The notes below the pieces were generated by a model. The model searched no databases. It was not told the DNA's origin and saw only the letters and a list, made by a program, of their open reading frames with translations. A DNA stretch of 64,000 bases from positions 1,460 to 65,459 of the IMG/VR virus record IMGVR_UViG_3300048996_000065. One strand, 5' to 3'. The position numbers and the translations under genes were made by a program. Shown here in pieces: positions 3,042 to 57,852 of this stretch (within the stretch, counting starts at the first letter, position 1; each line of letters starts with the position of its first letter). The stretch is from a virus. Taxonomy: Duplodnaviria; Caudoviricetes.

Positions 3042-3075
3042 CCGCCATTATAAGGCGGTGAACTCTAATCGGCTA
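3042..3075 (-). promoter_or_regulatory. Putative sigma70-type promoter with the -10 box inside an inverted repeat
   Basis: Minus strand TAGCCG-17 nt-TATAAT; TATAAT is flanked by CCGCC/GGCGG. Confidence 0.4.
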
Positions 3076-3306
3076 ATCTTCAAATTTTGGGACCTTGCCG
3101 CCTTTGGCAAAATCGGTCCAGCCGATTGAATGGGGGGTGTTGGATGCGAGACCTCCAATGGCTTTCTTCATGACGCGCTTTGGAGCACGACGGGAATAGC
3201 CTGACACCTGTTTCACCCCCCCAGAACTGGGACCGAAGCCAGCCTTTGAAGGAAAAGTGAAGTTTCCGTACTTTGGGCCATTGCCTGTTTTCTTGAAACC
3301 TTTCAT
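3073..3306 (-). CDS. Small basic virion protein with AxGG motifs
   Basis: Likely start MKGFKKTG at 3306, directly after the upstream stop; contains KKAIGGL and FAKGGKV. Confidence 0.65.
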   Translation of the reverse strand: MKGFKKTGNGPKYGNFTFPSKAGFGPSSGGVKQVSGYSRRAPKRVMKKAIGGLASNTPHSIGWTDFAKGGKVPKFED

Positions 3307-3307
3307 A

Positions 3308-3589
3308 TCATGACCCCGCCACGCCGCCTTGCTGCGACACAGAGAATACGTCAGTGGGCGCCATGCCCGTGGCCCTAACCGCTCGCGTACCTTGAGAGAA
3401 GATACCGAACCCAGAGGTAAGGGTGATGGTCCCGAAACGTGGAGTGATCGACAGATCAAACACATTGTCGGCGGTGAATTCAACTGCCCCAGCGCCATCA
3501 AGCCAGACGCCACCGGGGAACCCGGCATAAGTATCAACAGGGACCCATGGTGTGGTCCCCGTGACACCCGTAATTCTTACGGGACGCAT
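3308..3589 (-). CDS. Small virion structural protein
   Basis: 93 aa beta-rich ORF tightly packed in the head operon. Confidence 0.55.
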   Translation of the reverse strand: MRPVRITGVTGTTPWVPVDTYAGFPGGVWLDGAGAVEFTADNVFDLSITPRFGTITLTSGFGIFSQGTRAVRATGMAPTDVFSVSQQGGVAGS

Positions 3590-3590
3590 C

Positions 3591-4310
3591 TTAACGCTCC
3601 TGAGCGAACATCAGGTAGTCGACCGTCGCAGTCTTCGCAACAGCTTCACCGTTCTTCAGGGAGATGATCGGGGCGCACTCCGTATTGGGCAGCAATGCCG
3701 CCGATACGGTGATGTAACCCGTGACCGTGCCATTGACCGAGTAGTAGAGTCGATCGACACCGTCGAAGAAACAAGCAACTTCCATCATCGTCGCTGCCAC
3801 GACTGTAGCAATGGCCCCGGAGTTAACCGAGCCCGTTGTATTGTCCTGACGCGAGTAAAGAGCGATGGTAGCAGCCGCAGTGGCTTTCAGAAAGAAAATA
3901 CCGTCGAGCGCCGTCGCCAGTGCGGTACCGTCGGCGTTAGCCACCTGAATGCCGATAGCGAAAGCTGACAGGGTTGCATCGGAGATAGCGAACCGAGCCT
4001 TCATGAAGAATTTCTTGCCGACGACCGGCAAGTAGGATTCACCAATCTTCTGAACCTGATTGATATCAGCAGCGCCAGCCGAGTTGGTCAGCAACAGAAG
4101 ACCGTTGTTACCATCGAGCAAAGCCTGTGTGGCACCCGCCTGCGTTTCCGTCACGGTCCAGTTGGCAGCCGTGAAGTAATCGAAGTCCTCGAAGAACTCG
4201 TGGAAAGGGGTTGGATCGATGTAGGGCATCGAGCCACCCCAGATCGTCCCGTCGGGGGAGGTATTGATACCACCCTGAAAGCGTGTTACCGCCAATGAAT
4301 TGAGAGGCAT
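3591..4310 (-). CDS. Virion structural protein (possible capsid decoration/fibre)
   Basis: 239 aa, FFEDFDYF...WTVTET lectin-like beta-sandwich pattern, directly after MCP. Confidence 0.6.
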   Translation of the reverse strand: MPLNSLAVTRFQGGINTSPDGTIWGGSMPYIDPTPFHEFFEDFDYFTAANWTVTETQAGATQALLDGNNGLLLLTNSAGAADINQVQKIGESYLPVVGKKFFMKARFAISDATLSAFAIGIQVANADGTALATALDGIFFLKATAAATIALYSRQDNTTGSVNSGAIATVVAATMMEVACFFDGVDRLYYSVNGTVTGYITVSAALLPNTECAPIISLKNGEAVAKTATVDYLMFAQER

Positions 4311-4354
4311 TTGTGCAAGTCTCCTAAAACCAGTTACGTGTGGTAGATACGAGA

Positions 4355-4376
4355 GGGCCCCGTTGCATAGGGGCCC
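4355..4376 (-). terminator. GC hairpin downstream of MCP (weak terminator or mRNA stabiliser)
   Basis: GGGCCCC-8 nt-GGGGCCC; poor U tract. Confidence 0.45.
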
Positions 4377-4401
4377 CCAAGGGAATCAATTCCAAATCCG
4401 G

Positions 4402-5319
4402 TTAGAGTCCCGGAGTTCCGTAAAGGATGCGTGGATCCGTCCAGCCCGGGATATAACGCTCTGTGGCCTTGTAGCGCATGCTATCCGTATTGAAGTCGCC
4501 TTCCATGCTGCGTTCGAGCTTACGGCGCGTCAGGAGCTTCAACCCCTGCGGAGCGTCGGTCTCGATCCACCAAGCCGTTGTCGAAGTGATGCGGCTGATA
4601 TTCGCCTGACCATCCTTCAACATGTTCATCGACTTGATCGGATTGATGTCGTTGTTGCCCGTGCCAGCTCGGAGAATGCTCTTCAGCAGCACTTCCGCCT
4701 GGAAGACGTTCGATGGGCCCGTGACGATACGCATCGGCGTGAGACGGATGCGCTTACCGTTGTTGTCAACGGCATTACGAATCTGAATCAGCATCTGCTC
4801 CAGCGAAGTTTGCGACAGAGCAGCAGCAGTCGTGAGCAGGTTGCTGAAGGTACCACCGATGATCGGATGGTTCGTGGCGTTCAGAGCAACACCGTCACCA
4901 CCCACGAAAGCGCCGCCCGTGAACGAGCGGTTGATGATATTTGCCGTCAACGTTTCTTTCGTCTCGATCATCGACTGAGCGAGATGTTCAGAATACGTCG
5001 TACCGATCTTGATGTGATCACCGTCTTCGACCAGCACCTTCGTGAGAGCGAAAGCGAGACCGAATACCTTGTAGACGTAGCGCTGAATGAACAGCACGCC
5101 GCCAGACTGGTAGGTGACCGGAGCACCATCGGGCAGCTCAGGAGCCGCACCGAAGCCGTAAAGAACCGGCTCTTCGTGGTAGTTGCGAGGCGTACCACGT
5201 TGTTCGCGGAAGACTGGCTTCCACTCGTCGGCACGTTGATCGTAGATACCGTCAAACGTTTCGTTCAAAATCGGTTCGACGATTGAACGAAAGTCTGTAC
5301 TGCGCATTGGCGTAGCCAT
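4402..5319 (-). CDS. Major capsid protein (HK97 fold)
   Basis: 305 aa; GFGAAP..DG, LAQSMIETKE..ANIIN, GGDGVAL...HP, NNDINP, MEGDFNTDSMRYKATERY..GWTDPR. Confidence 0.9.
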   Translation of the reverse strand: MATPMRSTDFRSIVEPILNETFDGIYDQRADEWKPVFREQRGTPRNYHEEPVLYGFGAAPELPDGAPVTYQSGGVLFIQRYVYKVFGLAFALTKVLVEDGDHIKIGTTYSEHLAQSMIETKETLTANIINRSFTGGAFVGGDGVALNATNHPIIGGTFSNLLTTAAALSQTSLEQMLIQIRNAVDNNGKRIRLTPMRIVTGPSNVFQAEVLLKSILRAGTGNNDINPIKSMNMLKDGQANISRITSTTAWWIETDAPQGLKLLTRRKLERSMEGDFNTDSMRYKATERYIPGWTDPRILYGTPGL

Positions 5320-5332
5320 GAATTATTCTCCG

Positions 5333-5911
5333 TTAAGCGAAGGCAGGCCGCGCACCAACGAGCTGGTGACGAGCAATTTGAACCTGTACGATGGTGAACG
5401 CATCACCCCAGTCGTTATCAGGGCCCTTGGTGATACCGACGATCTGCAGCTGATCTTGCGCAGCCAGAATCGTGGCAGTATCGAGCGTAACGGTAGACAG
5501 ACCCGTTCCCGTATCACCCGACTGAGCCGTGAAGCTGCCGATGAGACCGAGAGACGTACGCGCCACCACGCCATTGGCTTGGATCTCGTACGTGATCCAT
5601 GGATCTTGCGTGTAGTACACGACCGTACCCGGGTCGTTCGCCAGCGCAACCGTGCCGGTAGGCCACCAGTTGCTGACAGTACGACGTCCCTGCGCGTTCG
5701 TGTATTCTACGCCTTGCATGACGCCGATGAGTGGATTGGCCGCGCCAGCCGTAGCCGGACGGATATCACCCGTTGCTGAGTCGATGAGAACTGGAGCATT
5801 CATGAACATGTTCACGGCTGCACCAGACGTAATTGTTCCAACCGAGGGGCGGATGTCGCCCGACGGGTGGAAGCTTGGCCGGAGGCCAAACGCTGCACTT
5901 ACTGAAGACAT
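5333..5911 (-). CDS. Capsid cement/decoration protein
   Basis: AFGLRP, GVMQGVEYT, DPWITYEIQ motifs; immediately upstream of MCP. Confidence 0.65.
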   Translation of the reverse strand: MSSVSAAFGLRPSFHPSGDIRPSVGTITSGAAVNMFMNAPVLIDSATGDIRPATAGAANPLIGVMQGVEYTNAQGRRTVSNWWPTGTVALANDPGTVVYYTQDPWITYEIQANGVVARTSLGLIGSFTAQSGDTGTGLSTVTLDTATILAAQDQLQIVGITKGPDNDWGDAFTIVQVQIARHQLVGARPAFA

Positions 5912-5947
5912 TTTGAGAAGATCTCCGCGTTAGCGAAATGTTCCCCG

Positions 5948-6514: not shown

Positions 6515-6541
6515 CTAACTAGCTCCTATATAGCCAGCGGT

Positions 6542-7618: not shown

Positions 7619-7644
7619 GTTTCAAACTCCTTACAGCTTGAAGA

Positions 7645-8106
7645 TTAGTCGAGATACGCTTTCACTTTGAGCGGATCGCCTCGGTATCTACCCAGCAGAT
7701 CCAGATCACGGAAAACGATGAAGATCGCAAACTCGCGGTCGTTAGTACCCGGAATCGGTAAACGCCACCGATCCCCGCCGTACTTCGTCACGCGCACGAA
7801 CTCTCCCGGTTCACACCAATCTCCTTCTTTCCAAGATTCCAGGGTGTCCTGGTTCTTGAAAGCGGTGTCGCCGAGAGCAAGAACTTTAGCAACCTGCGTG
7901 CTCCACTGATCCGTCTCTTGAGCATCGTCAGGAATGATGATACCGCCGTCAGACATTTTCTTTGACGTGCGGAGCTGAACAAGAACCCGGTCGCCAAACG
8001 GCTCGAACTCCGGGTCTATTGCAGGGAAGGCTGCCGCCAGGGCTGCCGCATACGCGGCACTAACCTCTTGGGCGGGGAGGCTTTTCAATCGGGTTTGGTT
8101 GCTCAT
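7645..8106 (-). CDS. groES: Co-chaperonin GroES-like protein
   Basis: PFGDRVLVQ...GGIIIPD...KVLALG...WCEPGEFV..TKYGG. Confidence 0.85.
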   Translation of the reverse strand: MSNQTRLKSLPAQEVSAAYAAALAAAFPAIDPEFEPFGDRVLVQLRTSKKMSDGGIIIPDDAQETDQWSTQVAKVLALGDTAFKNQDTLESWKEGDWCEPGEFVRVTKYGGDRWRLPIPGTNDREFAIFIVFRDLDLLGRYRGDPLKVKAYLD

Positions 8107-8278: not shown

Positions 8279-8307
8279 ATACTACCACGCTCTTGTATTT
8301 GTTGCAA
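8279..8307 (-). promoter_or_regulatory. Sigma70-type promoter for the GroES-scaffold-capsid operon
   Basis: Minus strand TTGCAA-17 nt-TAGTAT with TG extension. Confidence 0.6.
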
Positions 8308-8320
8308 AACGCCTACAGGG

Positions 8321-8479
8321 TTAGCACTTACCCTTTCCGCCGCGCATTCCCTTTCCGCTTGCCACTCTTCCGCCTCCCTTGAATTTCTTCGCGCTTCCCG
8401 CGTTGCTCTGACCCGGTCCCTTGGTCTGGCTCTTGCTTCCCGTCGCCAGCTGGTATCTCTGTCGTGTCGCTTCGCTCAT
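8321..8479 (-). CDS. Small basic protein with GG motif, overlapping the acidic ORF
   Basis: MSEATRQRYQLATG...KKFKGGGRV; GAGG RBS upstream of ATG 8479. Confidence 0.55.
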   Translation of the reverse strand: MSEATRQRYQLATGSKSQTKGPGQSNAGSAKKFKGGGRVASGKGMRGGKGKC

Positions 8480-8741
8480 CGGTTTCGTCCTCGGTGGTTT
8501 CGTCGTCATCAGTTTCATCTGTGTCGACATCGGTTTCATCTTCGTCATCATCGTCATCATCCGGCAGAAGATTGGCACCGTCGGGATTCAAACCAGTTGC
8601 TGGGAATCCCGCTACCTTCAAATCCTCGAGCCAAGACTTCCCATCCCAGACCCTTCGCCACACGGGCGAATGTCCGTCGGGTGAAAGCCATTCCATCCCC
8701 TTCGCGGGGTTTGTCGGTTCGATCAAACTTTTCTGACGCAT
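8328..8741 (-). CDS. Acidic hypothetical protein
   Basis: GGGAG RBS; Asp/Glu/Thr tract. Confidence 0.55.
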   Translation of the reverse strand: MRQKSLIEPTNPAKGMEWLSPDGHSPVWRRVWDGKSWLEDLKVAGFPATGLNPDGANLLPDDDDDDEDETDVDTDETDDDETTEDETDERSDTTEIPAGDGKQEPDQGTGSEQRGKREEIQGRRKSGKRKGNARRKG

Positions 8742-8751
8742 CTTGCTCCCC

Positions 8752-8985
8752 TTATCGAGTGATATGCTTCGTGGCCCACATGACCGCTTCTTCTACCTTC
8801 GTCTTAGCGGACGAAAGCTCGCGGGATACACCGAAGCTTTCGATCAACTCGAAAAGCTCCAAGCCCTTATCCTTAACGGCTTGCATCTGAAGTTTCTCTT
8901 CGGGGGACAACACGCGGTAAGCGTGACGCATGACGTTGTTGACAACGCGCTCGTCAGAGGTTGAATTCACGGTTTCGAGAGGCAT
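8752..8985 (-). CDS. Acb2/Tad1-like cyclic-nucleotide sponge (putative anti-CBASS)
   Basis: YRVLSPEEKLQMQAVKDKG and RELSSAKTKVEEAVMWA resemble the Acb2-type helical hairpin family. Confidence 0.65.
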   Translation of the reverse strand: MPLETVNSTSDERVVNNVMRHAYRVLSPEEKLQMQAVKDKGLELFELIESFGVSRELSSAKTKVEEAVMWATKHITR

Positions 8986-12202: not shown

Positions 12203-12811
12203 TCACTGCAATGCTTTCAGCTGTTGACGAACGGCATCCTTCATTGCACCTGCGATCTGCCCGAGAAAATCGAACTTGCTCAACGCGCAGACCGGACACC
12301 GGTGAAAGATGACGCCTTCAGTTCCTACCGTGTGAATGGCAAGCTTGATCAGGGCTTCACAGGATTGGAATAGCGGTTCGATACGCTTGGCGCGCAATCG
12401 AGCTACCAGCTTGCTCTCGTCAGTCAGGATCAGCCCGCTGATTCCATGCAGGGTGAGCTTACGCACTAGCTCGTCATGATGCCGATCGCAAAACTCGATC
12501 TTCGCCTGCTCCCCCGGTTGAAGCATCTTCAGGATGTTGTCGGTGGTGATTACCGTCTTGCATCTTTCTTTAACGTCAAGTAGAGGCCACGTTCGCTCAG
12601 CGGGTGCTGGATCGCGCCGCCGAGCGGAAACCTTGACCCCGGCATCAGCCCCACTTGCTTCGCTTTCGTCGTCGTCACCGTGTCCTTTCGCTTCATCAGC
12701 TGGCGCTTTGGCACGGGCTTCTCTAGCAAGCCGTCGAGCCTTGCGCTTTCTTCGCGCGATTTCTTCCGGAGTGCTTTCACTTTCTTTGCGTTCACGCTTC
12801 ACCTTCTTCAT
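12203..12811 (-). CDS. Hypothetical protein (basic N-terminus, possible Zn-binding C-terminus)
   Basis: FCDRHH and CPVC; ATGA overlap with the upstream gene. Confidence 0.55.
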   Translation of the reverse strand: MKKVKRERKESESTPEEIARRKRKARRLAREARAKAPADEAKGHGDDDESEASGADAGVKVSARRRDPAPAERTWPLLDVKERCKTVITTDNILKMLQPGEQAKIEFCDRHHDELVRKLTLHGISGLILTDESKLVARLRAKRIEPLFQSCEALIKLAIHTVGTEGVIFHRCPVCALSKFDFLGQIAGAMKDAVRQQLKALQ

Positions 12812-13317
12812 GTCAGCCTCTTCACTTCGCTTAGTTTATTGAGCAATCGATCCGTTCTCTGCACGTCTTCTAGTTTTTTCGTTCCATCTTTACGTACCCA
12901 ACCGCGCCTCTCCTCGACGCGTTCGTACTCGGGCCACTCACCGAGCGCCGTTAGATCCGGGATGAGATCGAAGTCGTTGTGAGCCCCGTAGCACCAATGA
13001 CCATTCAGGGTTGAATCGTAATCCATCTGGCCGACGACTACTCCGAATCCCCAGTGTTGGAAGATGGGGAATCGCAAGCTTCCATGCTTTTCTTGGTCGA
13101 CGGTTGACAAGAAAAACTTTCCGCGTTTAACTCGTCGAACTTGGGATGGAACATCGGAGTGTGTTCCTGAAGGTGCGTTGGCTTGCTCACCTCCGCCCAA
13201 AGCCTTTGCCAGAAGGTCGGTGCGTTTGAAACCCTGACTGACTGCAACCGCCGTAGACGTCGACGGTCCCGGATCGTTTGGAACAGTTTCATCGGATTCT
13301 CCAGTGTCATTGTGCAT
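12808..13317 (-). CDS. Hypothetical protein
   Basis: 169 aa ORF coupled to the terL stop. Confidence 0.5.
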   Translation of the reverse strand: MHNDTGESDETVPNDPGPSTSTAVAVSQGFKRTDLLAKALGGGEQANAPSGTHSDVPSQVRRVKRGKFFLSTVDQEKHGSLRFPIFQHWGFGVVVGQMDYDSTLNGHWCYGAHNDFDLIPDLTALGEWPEYERVEERRGWVRKDGTKKLEDVQRTDRLLNKLSEVKRLT

Positions 13318-14827
13318 ACGGGTTCCCAGATTTCTTCAATCGAGCTATCGCACGCTGGCGCATGATGTCTTCGATATCCGGTTTGAATTCCAGAGCGCCG
13401 AAGAACTTGTCCATCGCCAGACGCAGAGCTTGGGTCGTCGTATCCAGCAAGTCGTCATGCTCGATACTCCCCTCGCCAACAAAGGAACAGACTTGGGAGA
13501 TCGTTGGATTCGCCCATGTCTTCGGTTGGCCCCTGCGTACATCCGATTCTACGCACCAAACGCGTCCGTGCGCAAATAGCGGACTCACATAGTGAAGTCG
13601 AGTGAGTTTATCTTCCCGTCCAGGATTGTATGCCTCCGTTAAAACATTCTCGATCGCCAGCGCTTGGCGCAACGAGATACCGCTGCCTTTCTCCTCGATG
13701 AGAATGCAATCCGGTTTCCGTCCTGTATGCCCCGACGTGCGCTCGCGACCGTCGATGATCGGTCGTAGCTTCGGCTCGTTATAGTCGCCGTAGGTCAGCA
13801 ACCGCTCTTTCTTTACGCGTTTCATCAACGCGGGGAATCCCAATCGATCTTCCCACGCATCAAGAAGCATGATGTTCAGCTTCTTCTCGTACTCGAACAA
13901 GCCCCACACCGTGCAAGCCGTCGGATCATTCTCCTGCTTCTTCTTGTTAAACGTATCGTCCGTGAACGCCGTGTCCAACGACATGATGATGAACTTAAAC
14001 TTAGGCAGCGGTCTGCCTGCTTTCCATAGCCGCCACTGCGATCGCTTGACGAATCCGGCTTCTTCTGGGTCTAACAGCTCGCCCCATAGCTCCTGGCGTC
14101 CGACGTTCGTGCCTTCGTACTTCGCTACGTTCTGGAAGTAAACGTCGGGAAGGTTAGCGCTATTCTCGTAGGTGCTGCCCGTTATAAGGACCGTACGCGG
14201 GTCCTCGGATAGCATGCGCACGAACGGCTTAGGCTTCGGCGTCGATGTCCAGCACACCTGGGGATTCGTTCCCAAGCGCAAGCCGAACATCAAGTTATCC
14301 CAAGCAAGCTCCGGGTATTTCCAGCTGGCAATCTCGTCGCACCATGCCGCGTGATGCTGAGGTCCGCGCAAGCGCTCCGGGCTATCGCCGGCGAAGCCGC
14401 GAATCATCGCACCGTTTATCAGGGTGATGCTGGGAAGCGAAAGCGACGAGTTAGCTTTATCAATCAGCTCCGGTGGAATCACATTCCATAGTCCGGTCTC
14501 GCCCTCGAAGCACGTGAACCGCACGTCGCCATATGTCGGAGCTACGACAGCGAAGTAACCGTTCGGAGTATTCGCGGCGAGCTGACCAATCCAATTCGCA
14601 GCGGTCAGCGTCTTGCCAAAGCCACGTCCCGATCGGATGCCCCATACGGTCCACAGCCCGGTTGGCTGAAGTTGTTTTGCCCGTGCCTTAGCTCGCCACT
14701 GAAGTCGCCACCGTAGAACGCTGAGTTCGTAAGCCGTGAAGCTTTCGAGCGTTTTTCTAAGAGCGCTTCTTGTTAATTTTGCGAGCTGAAGATTTTTCGG
14801 AGCTTTGACTAGAGCTGTCGTCGCCAT
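13307..14827 (-). CDS. terL: Terminase large subunit
   Basis: Walker A GRGFGKT, Walker B WCDE, TSTP, nuclease SLDTA...IEEKGSG...HDDLLD. Confidence 0.95.
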   Translation of the reverse strand: MATTALVKAPKNLQLAKLTRSALRKTLESFTAYELSVLRWRLQWRAKARAKQLQPTGLWTVWGIRSGRGFGKTLTAANWIGQLAANTPNGYFAVVAPTYGDVRFTCFEGETGLWNVIPPELIDKANSSLSLPSITLINGAMIRGFAGDSPERLRGPQHHAAWCDEIASWKYPELAWDNLMFGLRLGTNPQVCWTSTPKPKPFVRMLSEDPRTVLITGSTYENSANLPDVYFQNVAKYEGTNVGRQELWGELLDPEEAGFVKRSQWRLWKAGRPLPKFKFIIMSLDTAFTDDTFNKKKQENDPTACTVWGLFEYEKKLNIMLLDAWEDRLGFPALMKRVKKERLLTYGDYNEPKLRPIIDGRERTSGHTGRKPDCILIEEKGSGISLRQALAIENVLTEAYNPGREDKLTRLHYVSPLFAHGRVWCVESDVRRGQPKTWANPTISQVCSFVGEGSIEHDDLLDTTTQALRLAMDKFFGALEFKPDIEDIMRQRAIARLKKSGNPYAQ

Positions 14828-39823: not shown

Positions 39824-40160
39824 TACGCCGCGTGAAGTGCTGCAATCGATCAACGGATTTCTAGGGTCCGCTATCGACGATGTGGAGAACGGCGATTATC
39901 TCTGCTACGCTGATCCTGCCGCCTTCGACTTCCCCATCCTAATCTATCAGTATCAGCAGTGCGGAATGATTCCAGGCTGGCATTGGCGTAAGCAACGCTG
40001 CATGGGCGCAATGCGTAAAGCGCTGGAAGAAGAGGCGGAGTGGGAGATCGATCGAGTTGAAGCTGAGCTCAAGCATCACCCGGTTCACGACGCGCTGGCC
40101 CAGATGCACGAGCTGAAGAACGTGCTGAAGGCTTACCATTCAATCAAGGTGCTGAAATGA
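39594..40160 (+). CDS. DnaQ-like 3'-5' exonuclease
   Basis: MFDIETL, FDFPIL, HHPVHDA (DEDDh). Confidence 0.85.
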   Translation: MKRLMFDIETLSTFPNAALLAVAIVVMDDKKPKQQDWMARGWFIDPNLTIGHVNPETMDFWNDQPNQVKSLVFAGNDTPREVLQSINGFLGSAIDDVENGDYLCYADPAAFDFPILIYQYQQCGMIPGWHWRKQRCMGAMRKALEEEAEWEIDRVEAELKHHPVHDALAQMHELKNVLKAYHSIKVLK

Positions 40161-40600
40161 AAACCAAACGCATTAGCCGTGAGCAAGCGCTAATGGAGAT
40201 GGCGATTTCCGCTTCAAGACGCTCAACCTGTCAACGACGCGATGTAGGGGCGTTGATTGCAATCGACGGGCGTCCCGTGGTGACCGGGTATTCGGGAGCA
40301 CCCTCTAAGATGATCGATTGTTTAAAAGGCGGATGCATCCTCGGACCCGACGGTGGTTGTATCAGAACCGTGCATGCCGAAGCAAACGCTATCGTGTTCG
40401 CAGCTCGCAAGGGAATTGCGTGCGAGGGAGGAACGCTATACACCACCCTTAGTCCTTGCCCCGATTGCGCTAACATGATCATCAATGCGGGCATCACTCG
40501 AGTGTGGTATCTGGAACCCTACCGTATAGTAGATGGTATAACCATCCTCCGTGAGATGGGGATTGGTTGCGATCACCTGTTGTTCGATTTCGATCTATGA
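40157..40600 (+). CDS. dcd: dCMP deaminase
   Basis: RSTC.RR.VGA, TGY.G, HAEANAI, PCPDC. Confidence 0.9.
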   Translation: MKTKRISREQALMEMAISASRRSTCQRRDVGALIAIDGRPVVTGYSGAPSKMIDCLKGGCILGPDGGCIRTVHAEANAIVFAARKGIACEGGTLYTTLSPCPDCANMIINAGITRVWYLEPYRIVDGITILREMGIGCDHLLFDFDL

Positions 40601-49373: not shown

Positions 49374-50030
49374 CTAGGATCCTTCGTCATCGTTGATAAC
49401 ATCATCAGGGTCAACACCTTTGGATTTAATTTGTTCTCTAATCTTTTCTTGTCGATCGATTAAAGCATCGATCTCCGCGTTGGTCATTTTCTCATTTTTA
49501 TGTCCGGGAGTACCCGCATGATCTAACTCATTTTGCAACTTTTTCATTTTTCGAACCAGCGCGATAACTCCCGTTACTTTACCCCCTTTGGCGAAGGTAG
49601 CAACTTTCTCTTCGGCGACTTCCAGCTCAGCCGCATTATCATCCGTCTGTGAGCTGCCACGTTTCATCAATTCCATTTGACGCTTCAAACGTTTCGCCAA
49701 GGCGTTGTCACCGGAAGCTAACGCTTCTTCCACTTTCTTGGCAAGAGCTTTCAAAGCCATCATGCCGGTTTCGACCTTTCCGCCTTCCTTGTACCCCTTA
49801 CGGATCTTACCGCCCTTAGACGCTAGGCGCGTACGACTTCCGATACGGCCAATGGTACGACGCAACCCGTCACCGGTATTCGCCAAGGTTTGATCGGCTT
49901 CACCCAGGGGGTTTACGATCGGCCGCTTCATGGGACCAGCTGGACGCACCGAACGGGCTTTGGCGATCGGCGCTGGAGCAGCGCGACGAACCGCATTGGC
50001 AATAGCGCCAGATACTCGGGATTTAAACAT
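49374..50030 (-). CDS. Putative internal virion protein with three xxGGK(I/V) motifs
   Basis: ASKGGKI, YKEGGKV, FAKGGKV separate short helical segments. Confidence 0.6.
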   Translation of the reverse strand: MFKSRVSGAIANAVRRAAPAPIAKARSVRPAGPMKRPIVNPLGEADQTLANTGDGLRRTIGRIGSRTRLASKGGKIRKGYKEGGKVETGMMALKALAKKVEEALASGDNALAKRLKRQMELMKRGSSQTDDNAAELEVAEEKVATFAKGGKVTGVIALVRKMKKLQNELDHAGTPGHKNEKMTNAEIDALIDRQEKIREQIKSKGVDPDDVINDDEGS

Positions 50031-50031
50031 C

Positions 50032-52212
50032 TTACTTTCCTCTTGCCTTGTCGGTGATAGCTTTCTGAATCTTAGCCGGGTCGTCGCTTTCGTCTAGTCC
50101 CATGTCGTTCAGCAAGTCTTGAACTTCTATCTCGCCTTCGATCATGTCCTCGTAAGCTTCTTTAGCTTCCTCGAGGTTTAAGGTACCGTCGTCATTCCAA
50201 AGATCGGACCAATCTTTGTGAGTGATATCGATATCATGAGATTTGAAAAGCTCGACTAACCTTTGCGTAATCCCAGATACCTTACCGCCCTTCGCTTTCT
50301 TCGTGCCCTTCATAAGCATTTCCTGAAACTCTTCGTTGGACATCAACCCGTGTCCGTTGACCGGGGCGCGATAGTTCCTAGTGTTCGTTTCCTGGAAAAC
50401 GTTCTGGTTCACTACGCCCTGGTCCACGACCGGGGTTATTTTACGCGCATCCTCGGGAGTAGGAAATAACTTCTGATGCAATCGAAGAAGAGCATCGGCA
50501 ATTAAACTCTCGTCGTCGCTCAAAACCTGTTGACGAATATTATTGGCTTCCTCGGGTGCCAGAACGCCAGCTCGCTGAGCCTCGTTCGTCGAGTATAGCA
50601 CTTCCTCCAGTTCTTCGCCGATTTGGTGATTCTTCTGTTTCAGGGTGGAATCGGGGTTGATAGAGATCATCTTGAGCAATCCCTTCAACCCGGATACCTT
50701 ACCGCCCTCGGCATAGTCCCCGTAACCGGGCTTCATGTCAGTATCCGGACCCACCGCGTAAACATCCGATCGATAAGAATACCGCATATCAGGATCTAAC
50801 TCTCGAGATGCGCGAGGACCAGCATCATAAGCATTACGAGCTACCAACAATTGTCCGCGCTTTAACTGATGAGCTTTCTTATCAAACTCAAATTTATCAA
50901 AGGTTCCGTCTTCCTTTACAGGAAATTCGATCACTTCGGATGGATAAACGTGAAATGGGGCGATAGCTCCCACTTGATTGGATTCTAGATCGGGGTTTCC
51001 GTAACTAGCGGCAACATCCGGAGAATTCGACATGAAGGTAGAATACCCATCGCGAGATTTTCCCATCAAGGATTCTTCCGAGATCCCGGATTTAGAATCT
51101 CCAATCAAACCTCGAAACAGCCTTAAAGCCCCTTTGACTTTTCCTCCTTCGGCTAAATCATCACCATAAAGCCAGTCATCATAATCCGAAGGGTGAATTG
51201 GAGTGTCCGACATCTCTTTCCATAAATTCTCACGTTTCATACCGAGTTTCTTAAGAACCCAGTCATGAACTCCTTCTCGCGCATCCCAGACATAGCTATT
51301 TCCTTGCTTATCTACCATCATCCTTAAACTTGGAATCTCATCCCCCGCGAACCGAAGAACCTCGGATTGATCTGGATTTTTCAACACGGTAATGGGAACT
51401 GGTTTTCCATCCTTGCGGACATTCATGTTGAAATCTAAAATCTCAGATCCTTTGTCGATTTGCGAAGCTACTAGATTTTTCATCTCCTCAGGATCAATTT
51501 TTAATGCTGACCGGATAGCCTTGACTTTCCCGCCCTCACCCCAACCTCCATACTCGGGCTCGTCGCTGAGCATGCCCAGAGCGCCACCGGCGAGTGTCCC
51601 CATCCCGTAGTTGGAGAACGATGGCTCAACCGTTGGTAAGAAAAATTCAGCCGGGCTTGCTACTGCCTTCTTCATGTAATGCTTGGCAAGATTCAATGCA
51701 CCTTTGCCCGCGTCGACTTTGGCTTTCCCAGGGATTGGAAGCTGTGCCAGCATTTGCCCGCCGGCATTCGCGGCGTTCTGACGAAAGCCCCGGGGTGGGG
51801 CGAGATCCATTGCCTCATTTACCCCCTCATGCGTAGCGTCGGCCACGATCTGCATTTTCTCTGACCAAGCCGGACCGTTCCCCATGATATTAGGAAGCGA
51901 CAACGTGTCGGTGACCAACCCAGGATACACGGTATTAGGGTTCGGCTTACCCTGACGACGGTTTTCTTCGAGATTCCAGGCTCGAGTTAGATTGGCAAGA
52001 ATGGGATTGACCACTTCTCCGTCATCGTCGATACCCATGTATTGGGAAGCAAAGCCACTACCCAGCCGAGACAGCGTATCGTCGATAGTGTCATAATTCT
52101 CTTCATCGAGCCCCGGCACTGCATGCGACAGGGATTTAACTGCTGCGCGCAACAACTGCAGCGACTTATTCTTCCGTCGCTTCTTCCGAGGCTTTTCGTC
52201 AGAGTCGGCCAT
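50032..52212 (-). CDS. Modular (polyvalent-type) internal virion protein with ART-like cassette
   Basis: WGEGGKV, LAEGGKV, YAEGGKV, KAKGGKV separate four domains; LFRG...FMSNSPDVAASY in the second. Confidence 0.65.
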   Translation of the reverse strand: MADSDEKPRKKRRKNKSLQLLRAAVKSLSHAVPGLDEENYDTIDDTLSRLGSGFASQYMGIDDDGEVVNPILANLTRAWNLEENRRQGKPNPNTVYPGLVTDTLSLPNIMGNGPAWSEKMQIVADATHEGVNEAMDLAPPRGFRQNAANAGGQMLAQLPIPGKAKVDAGKGALNLAKHYMKKAVASPAEFFLPTVEPSFSNYGMGTLAGGALGMLSDEPEYGGWGEGGKVKAIRSALKIDPEEMKNLVASQIDKGSEILDFNMNVRKDGKPVPITVLKNPDQSEVLRFAGDEIPSLRMMVDKQGNSYVWDAREGVHDWVLKKLGMKRENLWKEMSDTPIHPSDYDDWLYGDDLAEGGKVKGALRLFRGLIGDSKSGISEESLMGKSRDGYSTFMSNSPDVAASYGNPDLESNQVGAIAPFHVYPSEVIEFPVKEDGTFDKFEFDKKAHQLKRGQLLVARNAYDAGPRASRELDPDMRYSYRSDVYAVGPDTDMKPGYGDYAEGGKVSGLKGLLKMISINPDSTLKQKNHQIGEELEEVLYSTNEAQRAGVLAPEEANNIRQQVLSDDESLIADALLRLHQKLFPTPEDARKITPVVDQGVVNQNVFQETNTRNYRAPVNGHGLMSNEEFQEMLMKGTKKAKGGKVSGITQRLVELFKSHDIDITHKDWSDLWNDDGTLNLEEAKEAYEDMIEGEIEVQDLLNDMGLDESDDPAKIQKAITDKARGK

Positions 52213-52215
52213 ATC

Positions 52216-55200
52216 TCACCCTAACCGTGCTTGGAGGGATGATAGAGCGTCGTCGCTACCGAAGAGAGTGCTATCGATCACGCTCTCCGCGATACGACGC
52301 CAACCGGGGGTACGCACCAATCCGCCGCGTGCCTTCTTCACCGGCTCCTCGTCGTCTTTCATATAGTCCTTGATGAACGGGAATGCCGCCCCAGCCACCC
52401 CGCCTAGGATTGCCGCTTTACCCGCCCGCTTCTTGCGAGCCGCGACACGACCGAATTTGGAAGTCAAATTTGCTTCGATCTTTTTGATTTCCTTCGGATC
52501 GGACGTTTTCAGGATACGCAGAATTTCAGCGGCTTCCTTCGGCTTGATCGGTTCTTGACGACGCAGCCAGCTGACTGCCCAAGACGTTGGGCTCCAGATG
52601 TTGAATGGAACCCGCTTGGCCGTTCGGCGCATCACGTTGTCCTGAGCGTCCCGTGTGCTCATCAGCTTTGTACGCCCTCGGGAGATCGTAGACTTCGAGT
52701 CCTCGTAGATGCGTTGCTCCAAATCGAGCGCAGCTTTGAAGATTTCGAACTCCTTAGGTTTATCGAATAGAAGCTGAAGACGTTTCACGTTGTCGGGAGT
52801 ATCGACGATCTTAGCCGCCGAGTTCTGCCGACTACCCGTCTTGCCGATTTGCTCGAATAGGTTTTGAGCAACACCCGTACGCAGCGCATCCTTCTCGCTG
52901 AAATTCATATCCTTGATATGCTCCGAGATCTCCTTCGGATCGAGTTTCATGAAATCCTCGCGACCGAAGCGCAAAGCGTCACGTAGCTCCAGACCGCCCG
53001 AATGTGTATCCCGTGCAGTCTTGTAAGCCGAGACCCCCGACTTATCCGTGGTCAATGCATCCATCTCGTCACGGAGAGCGTTTCGAATCGAACGCATGCG
53101 TCGACCCTTACCGGTAGGCTTATAAGCGCCACCCTGGGTTTCCTCGGCATTGATCAAATCATCCAAGTCTTGCTTAACCTGATCGAGAAATTCCAGGGAT
53201 GGGCGCGTAACCATGCCCGTGGCATCCGCCTTGCCGATCGTAGAACCCGGCTTATCTCGAATGGACTTAGTAGCAGATTTAACTGCTTTAGCCCCGCTGG
53301 GAGTATTCATCAGCTGCATGAGCTGTTCAGATCTCAGGTTGGGAAATTGCTTGTACAGCTCCCTGTAAGCATCCCCAGAACCCTCACGCATTTGCTCGAG
53401 TAATTTCTTCTCGGTGTCGAAGTAATCATCAGGCTTGAGTCCCTTATTGACCTGGTCGACTACTCGATCACGCGAACCTCGCTGACGTTCGACGGTTTCA
53501 CGATACAGCTGGCGGGTCTCGGGGTTCTCAGGGTTCATTGCCTGCTCGCCTAATGCGCGCATCTCGATTCCACCCATATCCAACCCATTGACGGGAACAC
53601 CCATGCGTTGAGCTTGAGTAACGAGCTTTGCCCATTCCGTAGGGTTCAGACCCTCGTTTTCGAGCGCTCGCAATACCCGGCTTTCCGCTTTCGTCGATTT
53701 ATGACCAGGTACGCGGTCCGCTAGGAAGTGCGATAGCTTCGCCCCGTAACGACCGCCACCGGCTCCTGCGGCCCCGTATCCGAGCGCTGCAAGCATCCCC
53801 GGGTCACTTCCGGCGACATCGACAACGTCGGCAGCCGGCATGTTAATGGCCGGTTCTTCCTGCGGAGAAGGCTCTTGCGGAATTTCCTGTGGAGCTTCCT
53901 GTGGAGCTTGCAAAGGTGATCCAGCCTTTTCCATCGCCATCGAATAGCGACTTAGCACCTTCTCGTAAGGAACACCGGGCTTGGCGTATACCACCTGACC
54001 GTCGGGCATCGTGAACGGCGTGCGTCCAGAAGAATCGATTTCTTCGTCAGCCCCAACCATACCGCCTTCGGCAAATCCCTCTTCCTCTTCGCCAGCAGGA
54101 ACCAAATCCTCGTAATACAGGGGTGGCTTGCTAGGATCCGGCTTGTACTGTTGCGGATCCTGCTTCGGCGCAGCAGACTTAGCAAGAAGCGGATCACCCT
54201 TCAATCCAGTTCCGTACTTATCGTCGTCACGAGTCCAGATGTCGTCTACGTTGAATCGGATTTGGCCATCGAAGCCTTCCAGGGTTCCATGTTCGCGGAA
54301 GTAATCAGCCGCTCCAACCTTAGCCTCGTAAGCACGGGTCATCTGTTCGATCAAATGTCGCAGACGATTCGCATTGGTCCTTTCGTCCAACGCGGGATTG
54401 TACACGCGGCTGATCAAACGTTCGCCTTCGTCTTTCGTAAACTGGGAACCGAGGATGGGGCGTAACGACCGTTGAACCGTATACTCCACCATTTCTTGGG
54501 TATCGGCTGATTCGGGCATAGTCACGTCTTGGACGGTTTTACCGATCCAAGGAATACGACTGATAATGCCCACCAGCGGTCCGGTCAGATTATCAGGTCT
54601 TGGTGCCTTAGGATCAGCCGGATCCAAGCGTTCTACCGCCGTGTGCAAATCCTGGAGCCCCTTCGCAGCATCCGATGCACCCGTCTGGATGAACTCTACA
54701 TAATCCTTCGAGTATTCTCGATCGACCGCTTGGGTGGCAGCATCGCGCTTCTTCTGTTGCGGTGAAGGCTGTCCAACCCGACGACCCAAGGTCTTCATAG
54801 CCTCGACGGAGAGTTTCGTGTCCTGCTCCTGACGCATTTTCATCAGCTGTAGCTGAGCGGCCAAGTACTCATCGTCGACGTTACTCAGAGCCAAATCAAG
54901 GTCCAGAACCCCTTTATCTCGGCCCTCGTTCCATTCCCGTTGACGACGACGAGGCTCGATAAGGGCTCCGGGAACCCGGCCCAGAGCTTCTCCAAAGTGA
55001 CCCGTGCGTGTAGGAGCCCCGAGTGCCGCTGATGCCGCCAGCCACTGCTCGGAGTTACCGTACTTAGCTGCCGCGAGATGCTTGCGAGCATTGCGCAACG
55101 CCATACGCGCTGAGTCAGCATTGGATTTGACTTTGTTCAGGTATGCATCGGTTCCGGCACTCGACGGATTGTCGACCGTGCGCCCCAGGATTTTCCTGGC

Positions 55201-55302
55201 GTATGCCAAAGCCTCCGGAGTCGTGTATTGTTCTTGCATCCCAACTAAAGCGAGCGGAGAACGTCCGCCGCTGTAGTCGTCATCATCGTATTCATCGGCC
55301 AT
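52216..55302 (-). CDS. Large internal virion / DNA ejection protein
   Basis: 1028 aa, helical, ILGSQFTKDEGERL segment; FAEGGMV and KARGGLV motifs. Confidence 0.65.
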   Translation of the reverse strand: MADEYDDDDYSGGRSPLALVGMQEQYTTPEALAYARKILGRTVDNPSSAGTDAYLNKVKSNADSARMALRNARKHLAAAKYGNSEQWLAASAALGAPTRTGHFGEALGRVPGALIEPRRRQREWNEGRDKGVLDLDLALSNVDDEYLAAQLQLMKMRQEQDTKLSVEAMKTLGRRVGQPSPQQKKRDAATQAVDREYSKDYVEFIQTGASDAAKGLQDLHTAVERLDPADPKAPRPDNLTGPLVGIISRIPWIGKTVQDVTMPESADTQEMVEYTVQRSLRPILGSQFTKDEGERLISRVYNPALDERTNANRLRHLIEQMTRAYEAKVGAADYFREHGTLEGFDGQIRFNVDDIWTRDDDKYGTGLKGDPLLAKSAAPKQDPQQYKPDPSKPPLYYEDLVPAGEEEEGFAEGGMVGADEEIDSSGRTPFTMPDGQVVYAKPGVPYEKVLSRYSMAMEKAGSPLQAPQEAPQEIPQEPSPQEEPAINMPAADVVDVAGSDPGMLAALGYGAAGAGGGRYGAKLSHFLADRVPGHKSTKAESRVLRALENEGLNPTEWAKLVTQAQRMGVPVNGLDMGGIEMRALGEQAMNPENPETRQLYRETVERQRGSRDRVVDQVNKGLKPDDYFDTEKKLLEQMREGSGDAYRELYKQFPNLRSEQLMQLMNTPSGAKAVKSATKSIRDKPGSTIGKADATGMVTRPSLEFLDQVKQDLDDLINAEETQGGAYKPTGKGRRMRSIRNALRDEMDALTTDKSGVSAYKTARDTHSGGLELRDALRFGREDFMKLDPKEISEHIKDMNFSEKDALRTGVAQNLFEQIGKTGSRQNSAAKIVDTPDNVKRLQLLFDKPKEFEIFKAALDLEQRIYEDSKSTISRGRTKLMSTRDAQDNVMRRTAKRVPFNIWSPTSWAVSWLRRQEPIKPKEAAEILRILKTSDPKEIKKIEANLTSKFGRVAARKKRAGKAAILGGVAGAAFPFIKDYMKDDEEPVKKARGGLVRTPGWRRIAESVIDSTLFGSDDALSSLQARLG

Positions 55303-56365
55303 TTCTTGTACTCCGATAGATTTCCAACGCGCCTCTTCGAGGTGCGGGCAATCGCTTTATACTTCCGCCTCGAGCTTTTCCTTGACCCTGGATTCCTTGC
55401 CACAGGGAGAAGATAGATCCGAGTTGCTCCAATCCGCTAGGACCGTAAACCTCCGCTGGCCCCGTATCCGTGGTCTGAGTAGACGACGAGTAAGGGATGC
55501 CACGAATAATCGAGGATAGCCAGTCGGTGGTGTTTCGATCGAAATTCGTTTGATTCTGGAAGTCACCATAGGCAAGATCCAGATTTCGTTGATTCTGGTT
55601 CTGTTGATCCTTGCCCGCCGTTGCTAGTTGCGTGATATCGCCCGCGTTCATTCGTTGCTGAGCCTCGGCGAGCGCGCCAAGCCCCTGACCGGCTTGCAAA
55701 CGATTGCCGGCATCACTCGCGGCCAGGTTACCGACAGTCTGCCCCGCTTGGAGCTGACGACTCATATCCTGGTTGTAAATGTTGGCACCGGATTCGTATG
55801 CACCAGCCAGAGCCGCATTGGCTTGGCTCTGAACGCCTTCCGTGATATCCCTCAGCCCTCGACCTACCGCGCGCTGTTGACCGGCAGACCCGTATGTACC
55901 CGCTTTGATGAAATTGCTGTTGATCGCCGGCATCAGCTTTTCTTGCAAAGCTCGTTGAGCCAAATCCGTCGATCGATCAATCACGTTTTTCGTATACGGG
56001 TTCATGTACTGTTCGACTGAATCCGTATATGACCCACCCGCTTTATTCAGGAATGGTTGAGCTTGCTGAAGCGCTCCCGGACCCGAGGCGACACTATTGA
56101 ACGCACCCTGAGCGGCATTCATCCCGGGTTTCCATGCTCCCGCAGTACTGCCCGCCTGATTCTGCGCCGCTTGTTGCAGGGGTGTGAATCCCGCAATACG
56201 TGGACCCCCATACTGCTGGTAGGGTTCGGCAGCCACGGTATTAGCGCGAGCAACCAACCCCTGCGTGTAGTCGTTCAGCCAGGACGGGACGTTGGTTGTG
56301 CTAGAGCCATACGTCGTGACGCTGGCTGGCGGACGTCCTTCAAATAAGAAATCTGTGATACTCAC
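55292..56365 (-). CDS. Internal virion / DNA pilot protein
   Basis: PYQQYGGPRIAGFTPLQQ, YMNPYT..V, Gln/Ala-rich; KARGGSI. Confidence 0.7.
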   Translation of the reverse strand: MSITDFLFEGRPPASVTTYGSSTTNVPSWLNDYTQGLVARANTVAAEPYQQYGGPRIAGFTPLQQAAQNQAGSTAGAWKPGMNAAQGAFNSVASGPGALQQAQPFLNKAGGSYTDSVEQYMNPYTKNVIDRSTDLAQRALQEKLMPAINSNFIKAGTYGSAGQQRAVGRGLRDITEGVQSQANAALAGAYESGANIYNQDMSRQLQAGQTVGNLAASDAGNRLQAGQGLGALAEAQQRMNAGDITQLATAGKDQQNQNQRNLDLAYGDFQNQTNFDRNTTDWLSSIIRGIPYSSSTQTTDTGPAEVYGPSGLEQLGSIFSLWQGIQGQGKARGGSIKRLPAPRRGALEIYRSTRNGR

Positions 56366-57852
56366 AGGTATTCCTCCGGATTCTTTGCACTAGAACTGAA
56401 CTTTCCCTTGGATAAAGCTTTTCCCTTATGCATACGTAATTTCTTACGTAACGCATCTAAGCGACGAGCCCCCTCATCGGTACTTCCGTCGCCTAGCAAT
56501 GCCACGGTCTCGGCATCGAAGACATATTCACCGTCAGAAAGGCGGGCAGGAATATCATCACTCCTGCCCGTGCCTGGACCCCGGACGAGACGACTAAGCG
56601 CGCCTCCTCCTTGACCATAGCCAAGATCGATGCCTCCGCCTCTCGCAGCGCCGACAGGACGGGGCTCTCGGTCATAGAACTGAAACTCAGGACCCGCTCC
56701 ATACGAGTAGTAATCAGAAATGTCTCCGGTTCTGGATCGACCCAAATAATCGACCGGAGCCATCGAATTGGTTCCTTGGTTGAAACCATCGGGAGGAGCG
56801 GGAGGACCACCGCCACCAGCACCACCTCCACCCATAAGAGTTCCGATAGCACCTACGCCACCCGCAATATCTTTCCAATTGCCCATATCGGAACCGTAGG
56901 CAAGAGTTCGATCCCACAGACTCGGCTCCGGCGGCAAGGACGGCTCAGGGATTCCCAGCTCCTCCGCCGTGGGAGCGTTCGGATCTTTATACGTATCTCG
57001 GTACTCCTTCACCTCGTTCGGGTTCTGGTAGCTGTCTACCCCATGAGCAACTTGACCCAAGGCTCCTAAACCAGCGGCAGCATCGGCGGCTGATAGACCG
57101 CTTCCAAGACCAGAAGCGGTAACGGTGACTCCCTCAATTCCTGCGGGTATTGCCGAACCCGCTCCACCCGCGACGTTAGCAACGGTGTTAAGAGCCCCAC
57201 CAGCCTCTCCGGCGGTTCCTAAAGCTCCGCCGGCATCTGCCGCATTACCAGCAGCCCCAGCAGCCCCTAAACCGGCCGTGGCAATGGCCATCAACGGGAT
57301 CTTGTTCTCTTTCACCGCATCCTGGATGTAATGGTGATTGTCTTTGTAAGTATTCTTTAAGTGTTCTTTCGAGAACAGCTTTTCACCGTTCCTCAGACGA
57401 TCCACTCGATCTTTGATATGGTAAGTGGGCGATAACGCTTTGTGAGCGGAATAGCCAGCCGAGAGACCATGTAAGGGTGTGCCGACTCCAGCAATACCCT
57501 CCCCATGCTTGATATCCTCGATGTCCTGTTTATTGATCGTCCAGGGTGTTGCACTTTTCACGATGGACTTACCAATGCTTTTCACGGCCTTCTTCAGCTT
57601 CGACATGAAGCCGTACTCGGGAAGACCCGTATGAGGGTTGTACGAAGGCTCTCCCCAGATTTTCTGGAGTTGCTGGAATTCTTCCGGGTTGATATGAATC
57701 AACACGTCGTCTCCCATCCGGCCACGACCGCGTACGGCTTCGGCCGCACGAGCGAGCCCGCCTTCCGCGAATCGAGCCACCGGACGGGGCTCATACACGC
57801 GAACGGTGATTACCTCACCATCTCCAAGATTCGCGCTGCGAATGCTCTTCAT
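56362..57852 (-). CDS. Internal virion protein with two conserved domains following AxGG motifs
   Basis: FAEGGL...GRMGDDVLIHINPEE...NPHTGLPEY and GPGTGRSDDIPARLSDGEYVF. Confidence 0.7.
   Translation of the reverse strand: MKSIRSANLGDGEVITVRVYEPRPVARFAEGGLARAAEAVRGRGRMGDDVLIHINPEEFQQLQKIWGEPSYNPHTGLPEYGFMSKLKKAVKSIGKSIVKSATPWTINKQDIEDIKHGEGIAGVGTPLHGLSAGYSAHKALSPTYHIKDRVDRLRNGEKLFSKEHLKNTYKDNHHYIQDAVKENKIPLMAIATAGLGAAGAAGNAADAGGALGTAGEAGGALNTVANVAGGAGSAIPAGIEGVTVTASGLGSGLSAADAAAGLGALGQVAHGVDSYQNPNEVKEYRDTYKDPNAPTAEELGIPEPSLPPEPSLWDRTLAYGSDMGNWKDIAGGVGAIGTLMGGGGAGGGGPPAPPDGFNQGTNSMAPVDYLGRSRTGDISDYYSYGAGPEFQFYDREPRPVGAARGGGIDLGYGQGGGALSRLVRGPGTGRSDDIPARLSDGEYVFDAETVALLGDGSTDEGARRLDALRKKLRMHKGKALSKGKFSSSAKNPEEYL

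Follow-up and report, generated by a model that had tools for sequence, protein, structure and literature searches.

An A-x-G-G-x-V peptide recurs at module junctions and C-termini of putative ejection and cargo proteins of an uncultivated podophage-like virus

The IMG/VR virus record IMGVR_UViG_3300048996_000065 (65,459 bp, with direct terminal repeats) encodes six proteins that share a seven-residue motif, [YFK]-A-[EKR]-G-G-x-[VI]. In the stretch of the record analysed here (bases 1460-65459, 64,000 nucleotides, hereafter the window) and in its relatives, the motif is real and enriched, is selected at the protein level, keeps its position, lies at junctions between modules and is biased towards C-termini. 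A very large group of uncultivated phages appears, on sequence grounds, to use it in ejected or cargo proteins as a position-conserved junction and terminal signal that acts at the protein level, and its sequence matches the maturation site of the phage T5 tape-measure protein. How short-tailed phages that lack a prohead protease select, organise and release the proteins that they inject is poorly understood. We tentatively favour a role for the motif in processing or hand-off, as a short linear signal that marks the module ends of ejected proteins, with cleavage as the presumed event.

A preliminary description of this DNA listed 15 copies, all of which are reproduced with their coordinates by translation of the named open reading frames (ORFs), 14 of them in credible genes (Table 1). 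Taken together, the window copies read [F/Y/K/L/W/A]-[A/G/K]-[E/K/R]-G-G-x-[V/I/A]; the earliest in any window protein is at residues 28-34 of the 496-amino-acid (aa) protein. The loose pattern [EKR]GG.[VI] has 13 matches in the 96 ORFs, 12 of which fall in the six motif proteins, the sole match outside being LKGGCIL in ORF 40157-40600. The tighter pattern [AKG][EKR]GG.[VI] has 11 matches, all in the six proteins. Per residue, the loose pattern occurs 12 times in the 2,902 aa of these proteins and once in the 16,830 aa of the other 90 ORFs (binomial P = 1.2e-9), and per GG dipeptide the figures are 12/40 and 1/90, respectively (Fisher P = 2e-6). In 2,000 shuffles carried out protein by protein, the proteome yields 2.2 +/- 1.5 matches (maximum 9) and the six proteins 0.59 (maximum 4), and the open frames that are not genes contain a single match in 38,729 aa. 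Since the regular expression was defined after the copies had been seen, the P-values are optimistic, although the margin is large all the same. The possibility raised with the preliminary description, that the pattern might show no enrichment in virion-type over other window proteins, is thus answered by a strong excess (12 matches against 0.59 expected). Its remark that the motif was not noticed in the capsid, portal and replication proteins agrees with the regular-expression search of the 96 ORFs, in which the capsid, portal-sized, terminase and replication genes have no copy.

The codons used for the Ala, the Glu or Lys, both Gly, the Lys and the Val vary synonymously among the copies. Selection therefore acts on the peptide, and the copies are neither recent DNA duplicates nor a patch of homology at the DNA level. 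Conservation of position is seen in three metagenome contigs (L098, L099 and L104) whose genes follow the order of the window and are roughly 50% identical to it. When the 1028-, 357- and 496-aa orthologues are aligned, the motif occupies the same columns, and the adjoining linker contains insertions and deletions. In several places the orthologues carry two copies in tandem, repeating every 8-9 residues. Both sites of the 1028-aa protein are kept in L098 and L099, where the middle one is tandem-doubled; the 357-aa orthologues of the same two contigs have 2-3 copies at the same end; and both sites of the 496-aa protein are kept in its orthologues.

Relatives of the 496-aa protein are encoded in 390 of 391 candidate IMG/VR stretches. 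Among 80 loci kept, 79 have an ORF homologous to it, and the ejection block was defined as that ORF and the next three. The strict motif occurs 40 times per 154,049 aa in the ejection block and 5 times per 204,122 aa in the rest, an 11-fold excess (P = 1.8e-10, with exact duplicates removed and the loci not being phylogenetically independent). Its density in these blocks is far below that in the lineage of the window (4.1 per 1,000 aa). Of 25 distinct C-terminal segments from 496-aa homologues, 19 (counted by eye) have the motif ∼27 residues upstream of a near-invariant block, G-x-G-D-G-Q-S-D-D-I-P-A-M-L-A-D-G-E-Y-V-F, and tape-measure proteins of Arthrobacter phages show the same pairing of motif and block. 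Among cultured phages, the nearest relatives of the 496-aa protein come from the Caulobacter phages RLK, RW, KcrB and GB2A, with 63.5% identity across the final 74 residues; in RLK, gp066c (12498-14240 of locus L012) has ARGGYA directly before GPGTGRSD, and its C-terminal end is DGGRV. The Pelagibacter phages HTVC103P, 104P and 115P are further cultured candidates for carrying the motif.

A scan of IMG/VR for DNA encoding YAEGGKV returned at least 121 matches in at least 120 stretches. Of the 121 matches listed, 101 belong to one family of roughly 80-130-aa proteins (loci L107-L226, e.g. 1554-1826 (+) of L118), composed of a basic N-terminal part ending in ...RRDDTDFTQ, the motif and either of two C-terminal modules (phrog_17747 or phrog_16028); among the other 20, one looks like a chance match. 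The PHROG families of these C-terminal modules start right after the motif, and related modules occur in PHROGs annotated as 'minor head protein and DNA pilot' and 'virion structural protein'. A homologue of the window capsid protein is encoded on 33 of the first 80 YAEGGKV loci, some of which also encode the ∼80-130-aa protein.

The placement of the motif is clearest in the 726-aa protein, where the copies at residues 224, 353, 500 and 639 separate five modules (N, A, B, C and D). In an AlphaFold model of this protein (mean predicted local distance difference test score, pLDDT, of 50, read for the pattern of order and disorder only), all four copies lie in coil with pLDDT <50, and helices begin at 228, 359, 507 and 643, i.e. 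0-4 residues after the end of each copy. Ten relatives in a collection of 5.8 billion proteins contain the same modules and a large extra one, variously ordered and combined, and most of their seams bear the motif. When 1.84 billion representatives were scanned in full with HMMER, 277 relatives were obtained, of which the 156 with module matches were used for counts of position. These 156 mosaic proteins contain 145 strict copies (1.07 per 1,000 aa), at least one being present in 78 of them. Random placement would put 8.3 copies in the 25 residues that follow a module end; 40 are found there, three are inside a module and 102 are in regions not defined as modules. The first 30 residues contain none of the 145 copies and the last 30 contain 18, a bias that would fit units of module, motif and short tail fused head to tail. 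Across 139 distinct contexts the consensus reads (G/K)-(Y/K/F)-A-(E/K)-G-G-K-V, after which leucines recur at the spacing of an amphipathic helix; Ala is found at its position in 128 contexts, Val in 123 and Lys in 84, and the residue preceding Ala is Y in 35, K in 30, F in 27 and R in 14. The earlier proposal of a motif at domain boundaries or near termini is borne out by these placements, and that of a signal shared by late virion-type proteins by the enrichment, the kept linker positions, the placement at junctions and the 11-fold excess in ejection blocks.

Module B of the 726-aa protein (residues ∼360-497) resembles ART-PolyVal through its relatives; the module as found in the window has no Pfam match at E<=0.1. 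One relative (P0041) that is 49% identical to module B (E 1.6e-25) reaches 32.1 bits with PF18760 (cut-off 31.2), and another (P0025) remains below the cut-off with 28.3 bits. A relative of 4,035 aa (P0047) contains seven ART-PolyVal stretches and an LPD23 domain, and in yet another a classical ADP-ribosyltransferase domain adjoins module B. Because relatives carry ART-PolyVal, LPD23 and ADP-ribosyltransferase domains, the 726-aa protein is best placed, by sequence, with the polyvalent proteins of Iyer et al. 2017. The sequence also indicates a very conserved head and fast-evolving ejected proteins: of the 8,000 candidates scored for the capsid protein, 7,322 are relatives at E<=1e-5 and the best 120 are 81-92% identical, and the best relatives of the 726-aa protein are only 36-56% identical, over parts of the sequence.

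For the six motif proteins, family matches and gene order point to a location in the virion, and the phage looks podophage-like from an SU10 podophage adaptor domain (SU10_adaptor, in one window ORF in the Pfam scan), an ejection-protein PHROG and a tail fibre. The C-terminal block of the 496-aa protein, GPGTGRSDDIPARLSDGEYVFDAETV, resembles tape-measure proteins, and tape-measure PHROGs match its residues 411-455 (a patch of 35-45 residues); none of the window proteins has a whole-protein match to tape-measure, tail tube or sheath families. A PDB sequence search with the 496-aa protein returned nothing relevant, and the AlphaFold model of its C-terminal domain (26 sequences) is uninformative, with a mean pLDDT of 49.5. 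A search with the 1028-aa protein returned no relatives from IMG/VR, and tblastn against GenBank phages gave short and weak matches only. In the 218-aa protein, a stretch resembling an amphipathic helix comes after each of YKEGGKV and FAKGGKV. The 77-aa ORF has a positive coding score in its frame from about 3340 downwards, and its product shows a weak similarity (E 0.007) to a 301-aa protein of locus L167 (4159-5061, +), which has at least five motif-like copies and a DUF6496 module. The gene for the latter lies ∼2.5 kb downstream of a capsid gene, in the position of the window's 77-aa ORF, and the L167 capsid protein is 81% identical to that of the window. A complex prediction for the capsid protein and the 77-aa motif protein, run without controls, scored 0.00 and allows no verdict.

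Maturation of the T5 tape-measure protein pb2 offers the closest precedent for an action of the motif. T5 pb2, which yields pb2* and pb2C, is cut after R1127, as mapped by mass spectrometry (Linares et al. 2023, PMC10038345). The translation of gene D18-19 (1,219 residues) has five GG sites, of which one fits A[EKR]GG, namely A1128-E-G-G-M-M after F-V-P-R1127, so that the cut falls exactly at the N-terminal edge of the motif. The register R1127|AEGGMM corresponds to [basic/aromatic]|A-[EKR]-G-G-x-h in the window copies, and pb2 leaves the virion ahead of the DNA, as the proteins here would do if their predicted virion location is correct. T5 is a long-tailed phage with a single site, whereas the podophage-like virus described here has 14 copies in six proteins. 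In our literature searches, T5 pb2 was the only tape-measure protein with a cleavage map at residue level.

In phage lambda, gpH matures to gpH* and gpHC. The two sequences F-ATGGFT (at 734) and Y-ATGGYV (at 779) are [F/Y]-A-T-G-G-[F/Y] copies in its glycine-rich C-terminal region that is cleaved off (roughly residues 690-817); the variable position is Thr rather than E/K/R. A cut at 734 would free 12.5 kDa, compared with the ∼14 kDa quoted. The preliminary description took as established that FAxGG motifs occur near the processed C-termini of siphophage tape measures such as gpH; the two ATGG copies are present, but the cleavage site and the catalyst are stated to be unknown in the 2025 Ur-lambda paper (PMC12617516), and T5 pb2 is the better precedent. 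In the podophage P22, the first 20 residues of the ejection protein gp7 are removed by the host oligopeptidase A (OpdA), according to a GenBank note. The cut, at S-Y-P-E|K-G-G-K-G-G, lies beside K-G-G-K; it is one residue from GG instead of two, and the site is N-terminal. As gp7 is trimmed by host OpdA, a phage without a protease of its own can still process its ejection proteins.

From the T5, lambda and P22 precedents, cleavage is the leading reading of the motif, though the matches are short and come from other phages, and proteolytic release of modules is plausible because T5 pb2 is cut directly before AEGGMM. The motif-bearing set would comprise ejection proteins, a mosaic cargo protein of the polyvalent type and a small basic protein. 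In these proteins, which are probably packaged in the head and ejected with the DNA, the motif would close each module, sitting in a flexible linker that is usually followed by an amphipathic or basic stretch. If the unit is a module, the motif and a short tail, fusion of such units would put the motif at every junction and at the C-terminus and never at the N-terminus. The most likely action would be endoproteolytic processing or hand-off just upstream of the Ala, as in T5 R1127|AEGGMM. Such a cut would separate modules and trim C-terminal tails, and its enzyme would be a host or cryptic protease rather than a recognisably phage-encoded one.

Several observations weigh against this proposal. 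Cleavage in this phage and its close relatives is something that we infer only, the comparison with T5 rests on six residues, and the P22 gp7 cut is one position off the T5 register. Among the ten mosaic relatives the motif is absent at two seams (D|A of P0003 and C|A of P0004), and in the larger set it follows just 22 of 74 ends of module N and 14 of 71 ends of module B. Very large polyvalent proteins contain module B without an adjacent motif, and the motif therefore characterises a lineage or system and not the module. Some relatives terminate exactly at the motif (...DGGRV-stop in Caulobacter phage RLK gp066c, ...EGGAVE-stop and ...RGGLV-stop). As to the enzyme, peptidase families are absent from the best 25 of 37 Pfam families found with 89 ORFs scanned, and six-frame searches for S78 (HK97-type prohead protease), Prok-JAB, C39 and ClpP were all empty with positive controls, S77 and S49 having had no separate search; these negatives do not extend to remote or novel proteases. 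Two ORFs of unknown function between the scaffold and capsid genes matched no family in the ESM Atlas and only hypothetical viral proteins, one of them with a weak lead to cement proteins. The short capsid protein, the separate scaffold-like protein and the failure to detect a protease together suggest a head that is assembled without a prohead protease.

A possible alternative, to which we give somewhat less credence, is that the motif is never cut and acts as a docking or cargo-loading tag. Motif and tail would bind a fixed site of the procapsid or core (the inner face of the capsid, the scaffold or the portal), and each module travelling in the head would bear one copy, by a logic like that of T4 targeting sequences or encapsulin peptides. 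The C-terminal bias suits such a tag, tandem copies at a period of 8-9 residues would suit avidity, and where relatives end at the motif a cut would free few residues, so that a terminal docking tag fits better there. The small motif protein adjoins the head genes, capsid homologues are present on 33 of the first 80 YAEGGKV loci, and no protease was found in the searches above. However, the encapsulin consensus differs, one copy would suffice for targeting whereas the 726-aa protein has four, and the only motif-bearing site with experimental data, that of T5 pb2, is a cleavage site. The motif might instead be a passive joint that needs no reader, with a Gly-Gly hinge and a helix cap that let modules be threaded serially through the portal and tail channel. 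This is unlikely: the coil and the helix right after each copy in the AlphaFold model, the placement at module boundaries and the presence of the same element in tape-measure proteins, which also travel through the tail, are what it would lead one to expect, but a hinge does not need seven defined positions, and Ala, Val and Lys are frequent at theirs in the 139 contexts. In orthologues, moreover, the motif is a conserved island in linkers that otherwise vary freely.

The two remaining alternatives concern the origin of the copies. Modules are shuffled among relatives with the motif at the seams, as would be seen if the motif were a short DNA-level homology patch promoting module exchange, or a remnant of such exchange. 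The 14 copies nevertheless differ in synonymous codons at nearly every position and have no DNA identity beyond what the peptide demands, and copies are also found at C-termini, where nothing follows them, which makes a recombination linker highly improbable. Chance in glycine- and lysine-rich proteins has in its favour that the six proteins hold 40 of the 130 GG dipeptides in 15% of the proteome residues. It can be discounted almost entirely in view of the composition-keeping shuffles, the comparison per GG dipeptide, the retention of the motif in orthologues and the ejection-block excess in 79 loci. Returning to the processing signal, a broader version of it is doubtful in our estimate: A-x-G-G-x-V might be a general 'cut or hand over' code of long-tailed tape measures and of the ejection and cargo proteins of uncultivated podophages, read by a conserved host endopeptidase or an unrecognised phage one, which would free interchangeable modules individually and would be the determinant of gpH and pb2 maturation.

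Short peptides with related roles are known from other systems. In T4, a capsid-targeting sequence is cleaved by gp21 (L/I-x-E), and the corresponding code in phiKZ and SPN3US is S/A/G-x-E. The likeness is that a short shared peptide marks head-bound proteins and is also a protease site; the difference is that they lie at the N-terminus, where a prohead protease of the phage recognises them, whereas none of the 145 strict copies of the present motif is in the first 30 residues and the searches above found no gene for such a protease in the window. The demarcation motifs found in polymorphic toxins (VENN and similar) are present in a single copy per protein, ahead of the C-terminal toxin. They too are short conserved peptides at the seam of exchangeable modules, and they differ from the present motif in that several copies per protein and terminal copies are found here. 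Encapsulin cargo is loaded through a short peptide at the C-terminus, which attaches to the inside of an HK97-fold shell protein and has a consensus that differs from the motif. Prohead-protease signals of the T4/phiKZ type are covered in part by PMC9024508. With the polyvalent proteins (Iyer et al. 2017, PMC5512222) the 726-aa protein has in common exchangeable modules, one of them probably ART-PolyVal-like, and a location beside virion genes; the variable architecture of that class is matched by five modules in varying orders in the ten relatives and the 156 proteins. The processing passages of that paper invoke embedded metallopeptidase domains, which the 726-aa protein lacks, and a term search of it found no 'linker', 'glycine' or junction motif. 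Literature string searches (titles and abstract openings) found no description of the phage motif in print, and the passages searched of an ejection-protein review (PMC8954989) and of the phiRIO-1 paper do not mention it.

Four further explanations were considered and rejected. Mimicry of the GroES mobile loop does not fit, as the loop of the phage Cpn10-like protein reads SDGGIII, in another register, and the motif has no hydrophobic triplet after GG. In S24/LexA-type self-cleavage, a ∼130-aa domain with a Ser-Lys dyad lies downstream of an Ala-Gly site; in the case of the SDDIPA...GEYV block, only ∼45 residues (a helix in a low-confidence model) follow the SDDIPARLSDGEYV block, and there is no Pfam match. 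For GlyGly-CTERM/rhombosortase processing the tails are too short or not hydrophobic, and for a double-glycine leader (C39) no C39 peptidase was found and the T5 cut is before Ala, not after GG.

A fixed signal at module ends would let cargo proteins be predicted, and modules delimited, from sequence, and would allow mutational tests of how cargo is loaded and freed. The motif coincides with the T5 cleavage site and also lies in the stretch of lambda gpH for which neither the cleavage site nor the protease has been established since the 1970s, and the question of tape-measure maturation thereby becomes directly testable in laboratory phages. In practical use, foreign proteins could be packaged into phage heads with the motif as an engineered junction.

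Table 1. Motif-bearing proteins with their motif copies, and other virion-related genes, by position in the window
Feature	Position	Strand	Motif copies	Remarks
496-aa protein	56362-57852	minus	FAEGGLA 57751-57771 (residues 28-34); AARGGGI 56629-56649 (residues 402-408)	
357-aa protein	55292-56365	minus	KARGGSI 55358-55378 (28 residues from C-terminus)	'DNA ejection protein' family, phrog_4287, E 6e-14
1028-aa protein	52216-55302	minus	FAEGGMV 54055-54075 (at 410); KARGGLV 52315-52335 (at 990)	phrog_5880 (function unknown)
726-aa protein, putative mosaic cargo protein	50032-52212	minus	WGEGGKV 51523-51543; LAEGGKV 51136-51156; YAEGGKV 50695-50715; KAKGGKV 50278-50298	N module, motif, A, motif, B, motif, C, motif, D
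218-aa protein	49374-50030	minus	ASKGGKI 49803-49823; YKEGGKV 49773-49793; FAKGGKV 49575-49595	no family match in PHROGs or Pfam
77-aa basic glycine-rich protein	3073-3306	minus	KAIGGLA 3145-3165; FAKGGKV 3091-3111 (5 residues from C-terminus)	downstream of capsid gene
Doubtful copy	8363-8383	minus	FKGGGRV	only in ORF 8321-8578, overlapping longer ORF 8328-8741 in other frame
Large terminase	13307-14827	minus		
Portal-sized protein, 872 aa	8992-11610	minus		named by size and position only; no family match
Cpn10/GroES-like protein	7645-8106	minus		PF00166, E 2.5e-9; within head gene cluster
Scaffold-like protein, 358 aa	6542-7618	minus		highly charged, coiled-coil look, without motif; putative role, proposed solely on composition and position
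Major capsid protein, 305 aa	4402-5319	minus		HK97/Mu gpT-like; without motif

Among GenBank phages the window has no close relative at the DNA level, a search with 49374-57852 giving no match. Besides the head genes, a second minus-strand block (63998-48757) encodes 'virion structural protein' families, a tail-fibre-like protein and five adjacent motif genes; tail-fibre-like genes are also on the minus strand of the window. A PDB sequence search with the 872-aa portal-sized protein returned nothing relevant.

The preliminary description had spoken of seven virion genes with the motif. Six of these are credible, and the seventh (8321-8578) is in a frame that codon usage makes doubtful: scoring favours the frame of ORF 8328-8741 over most of the overlap and is ambiguous in the last ∼100 nucleotides, and a search for relatives of ORF 8328-8741, intended to decide the frame of FKGGGRV, found none. 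ORF 8328-8741 has a very acidic middle and ORF 8321-8578 a basic tail that includes FKGGGRV. Near the 3' end of 8321-8741 the codon score shifts towards the second frame, and this may reflect a frameshift, whether programmed or erroneous, or have no significance.

A 77-aa ORF (8752-8985, minus strand) that lies between the portal-sized gene and the head genes matches the Acb2/Tad1 hairpin domain (PF24729, E 1.6e-17). The Acb2/Tad1 family comprises anti-CBASS/anti-Thoeris nucleotide sponges, here encoded inside the structural module. The Pfam scan of the window also detected a protein with a DnaJ domain and a rich set of nucleotide-metabolism and conflict proteins (ThyX, dCMP deaminase, UDG, dUTPase, NADAR, a MafB19-like deaminase, an SNF2-type helicase, a PD-(D/E)XK nuclease and LuxR/sigma-70 region 4 regulators).

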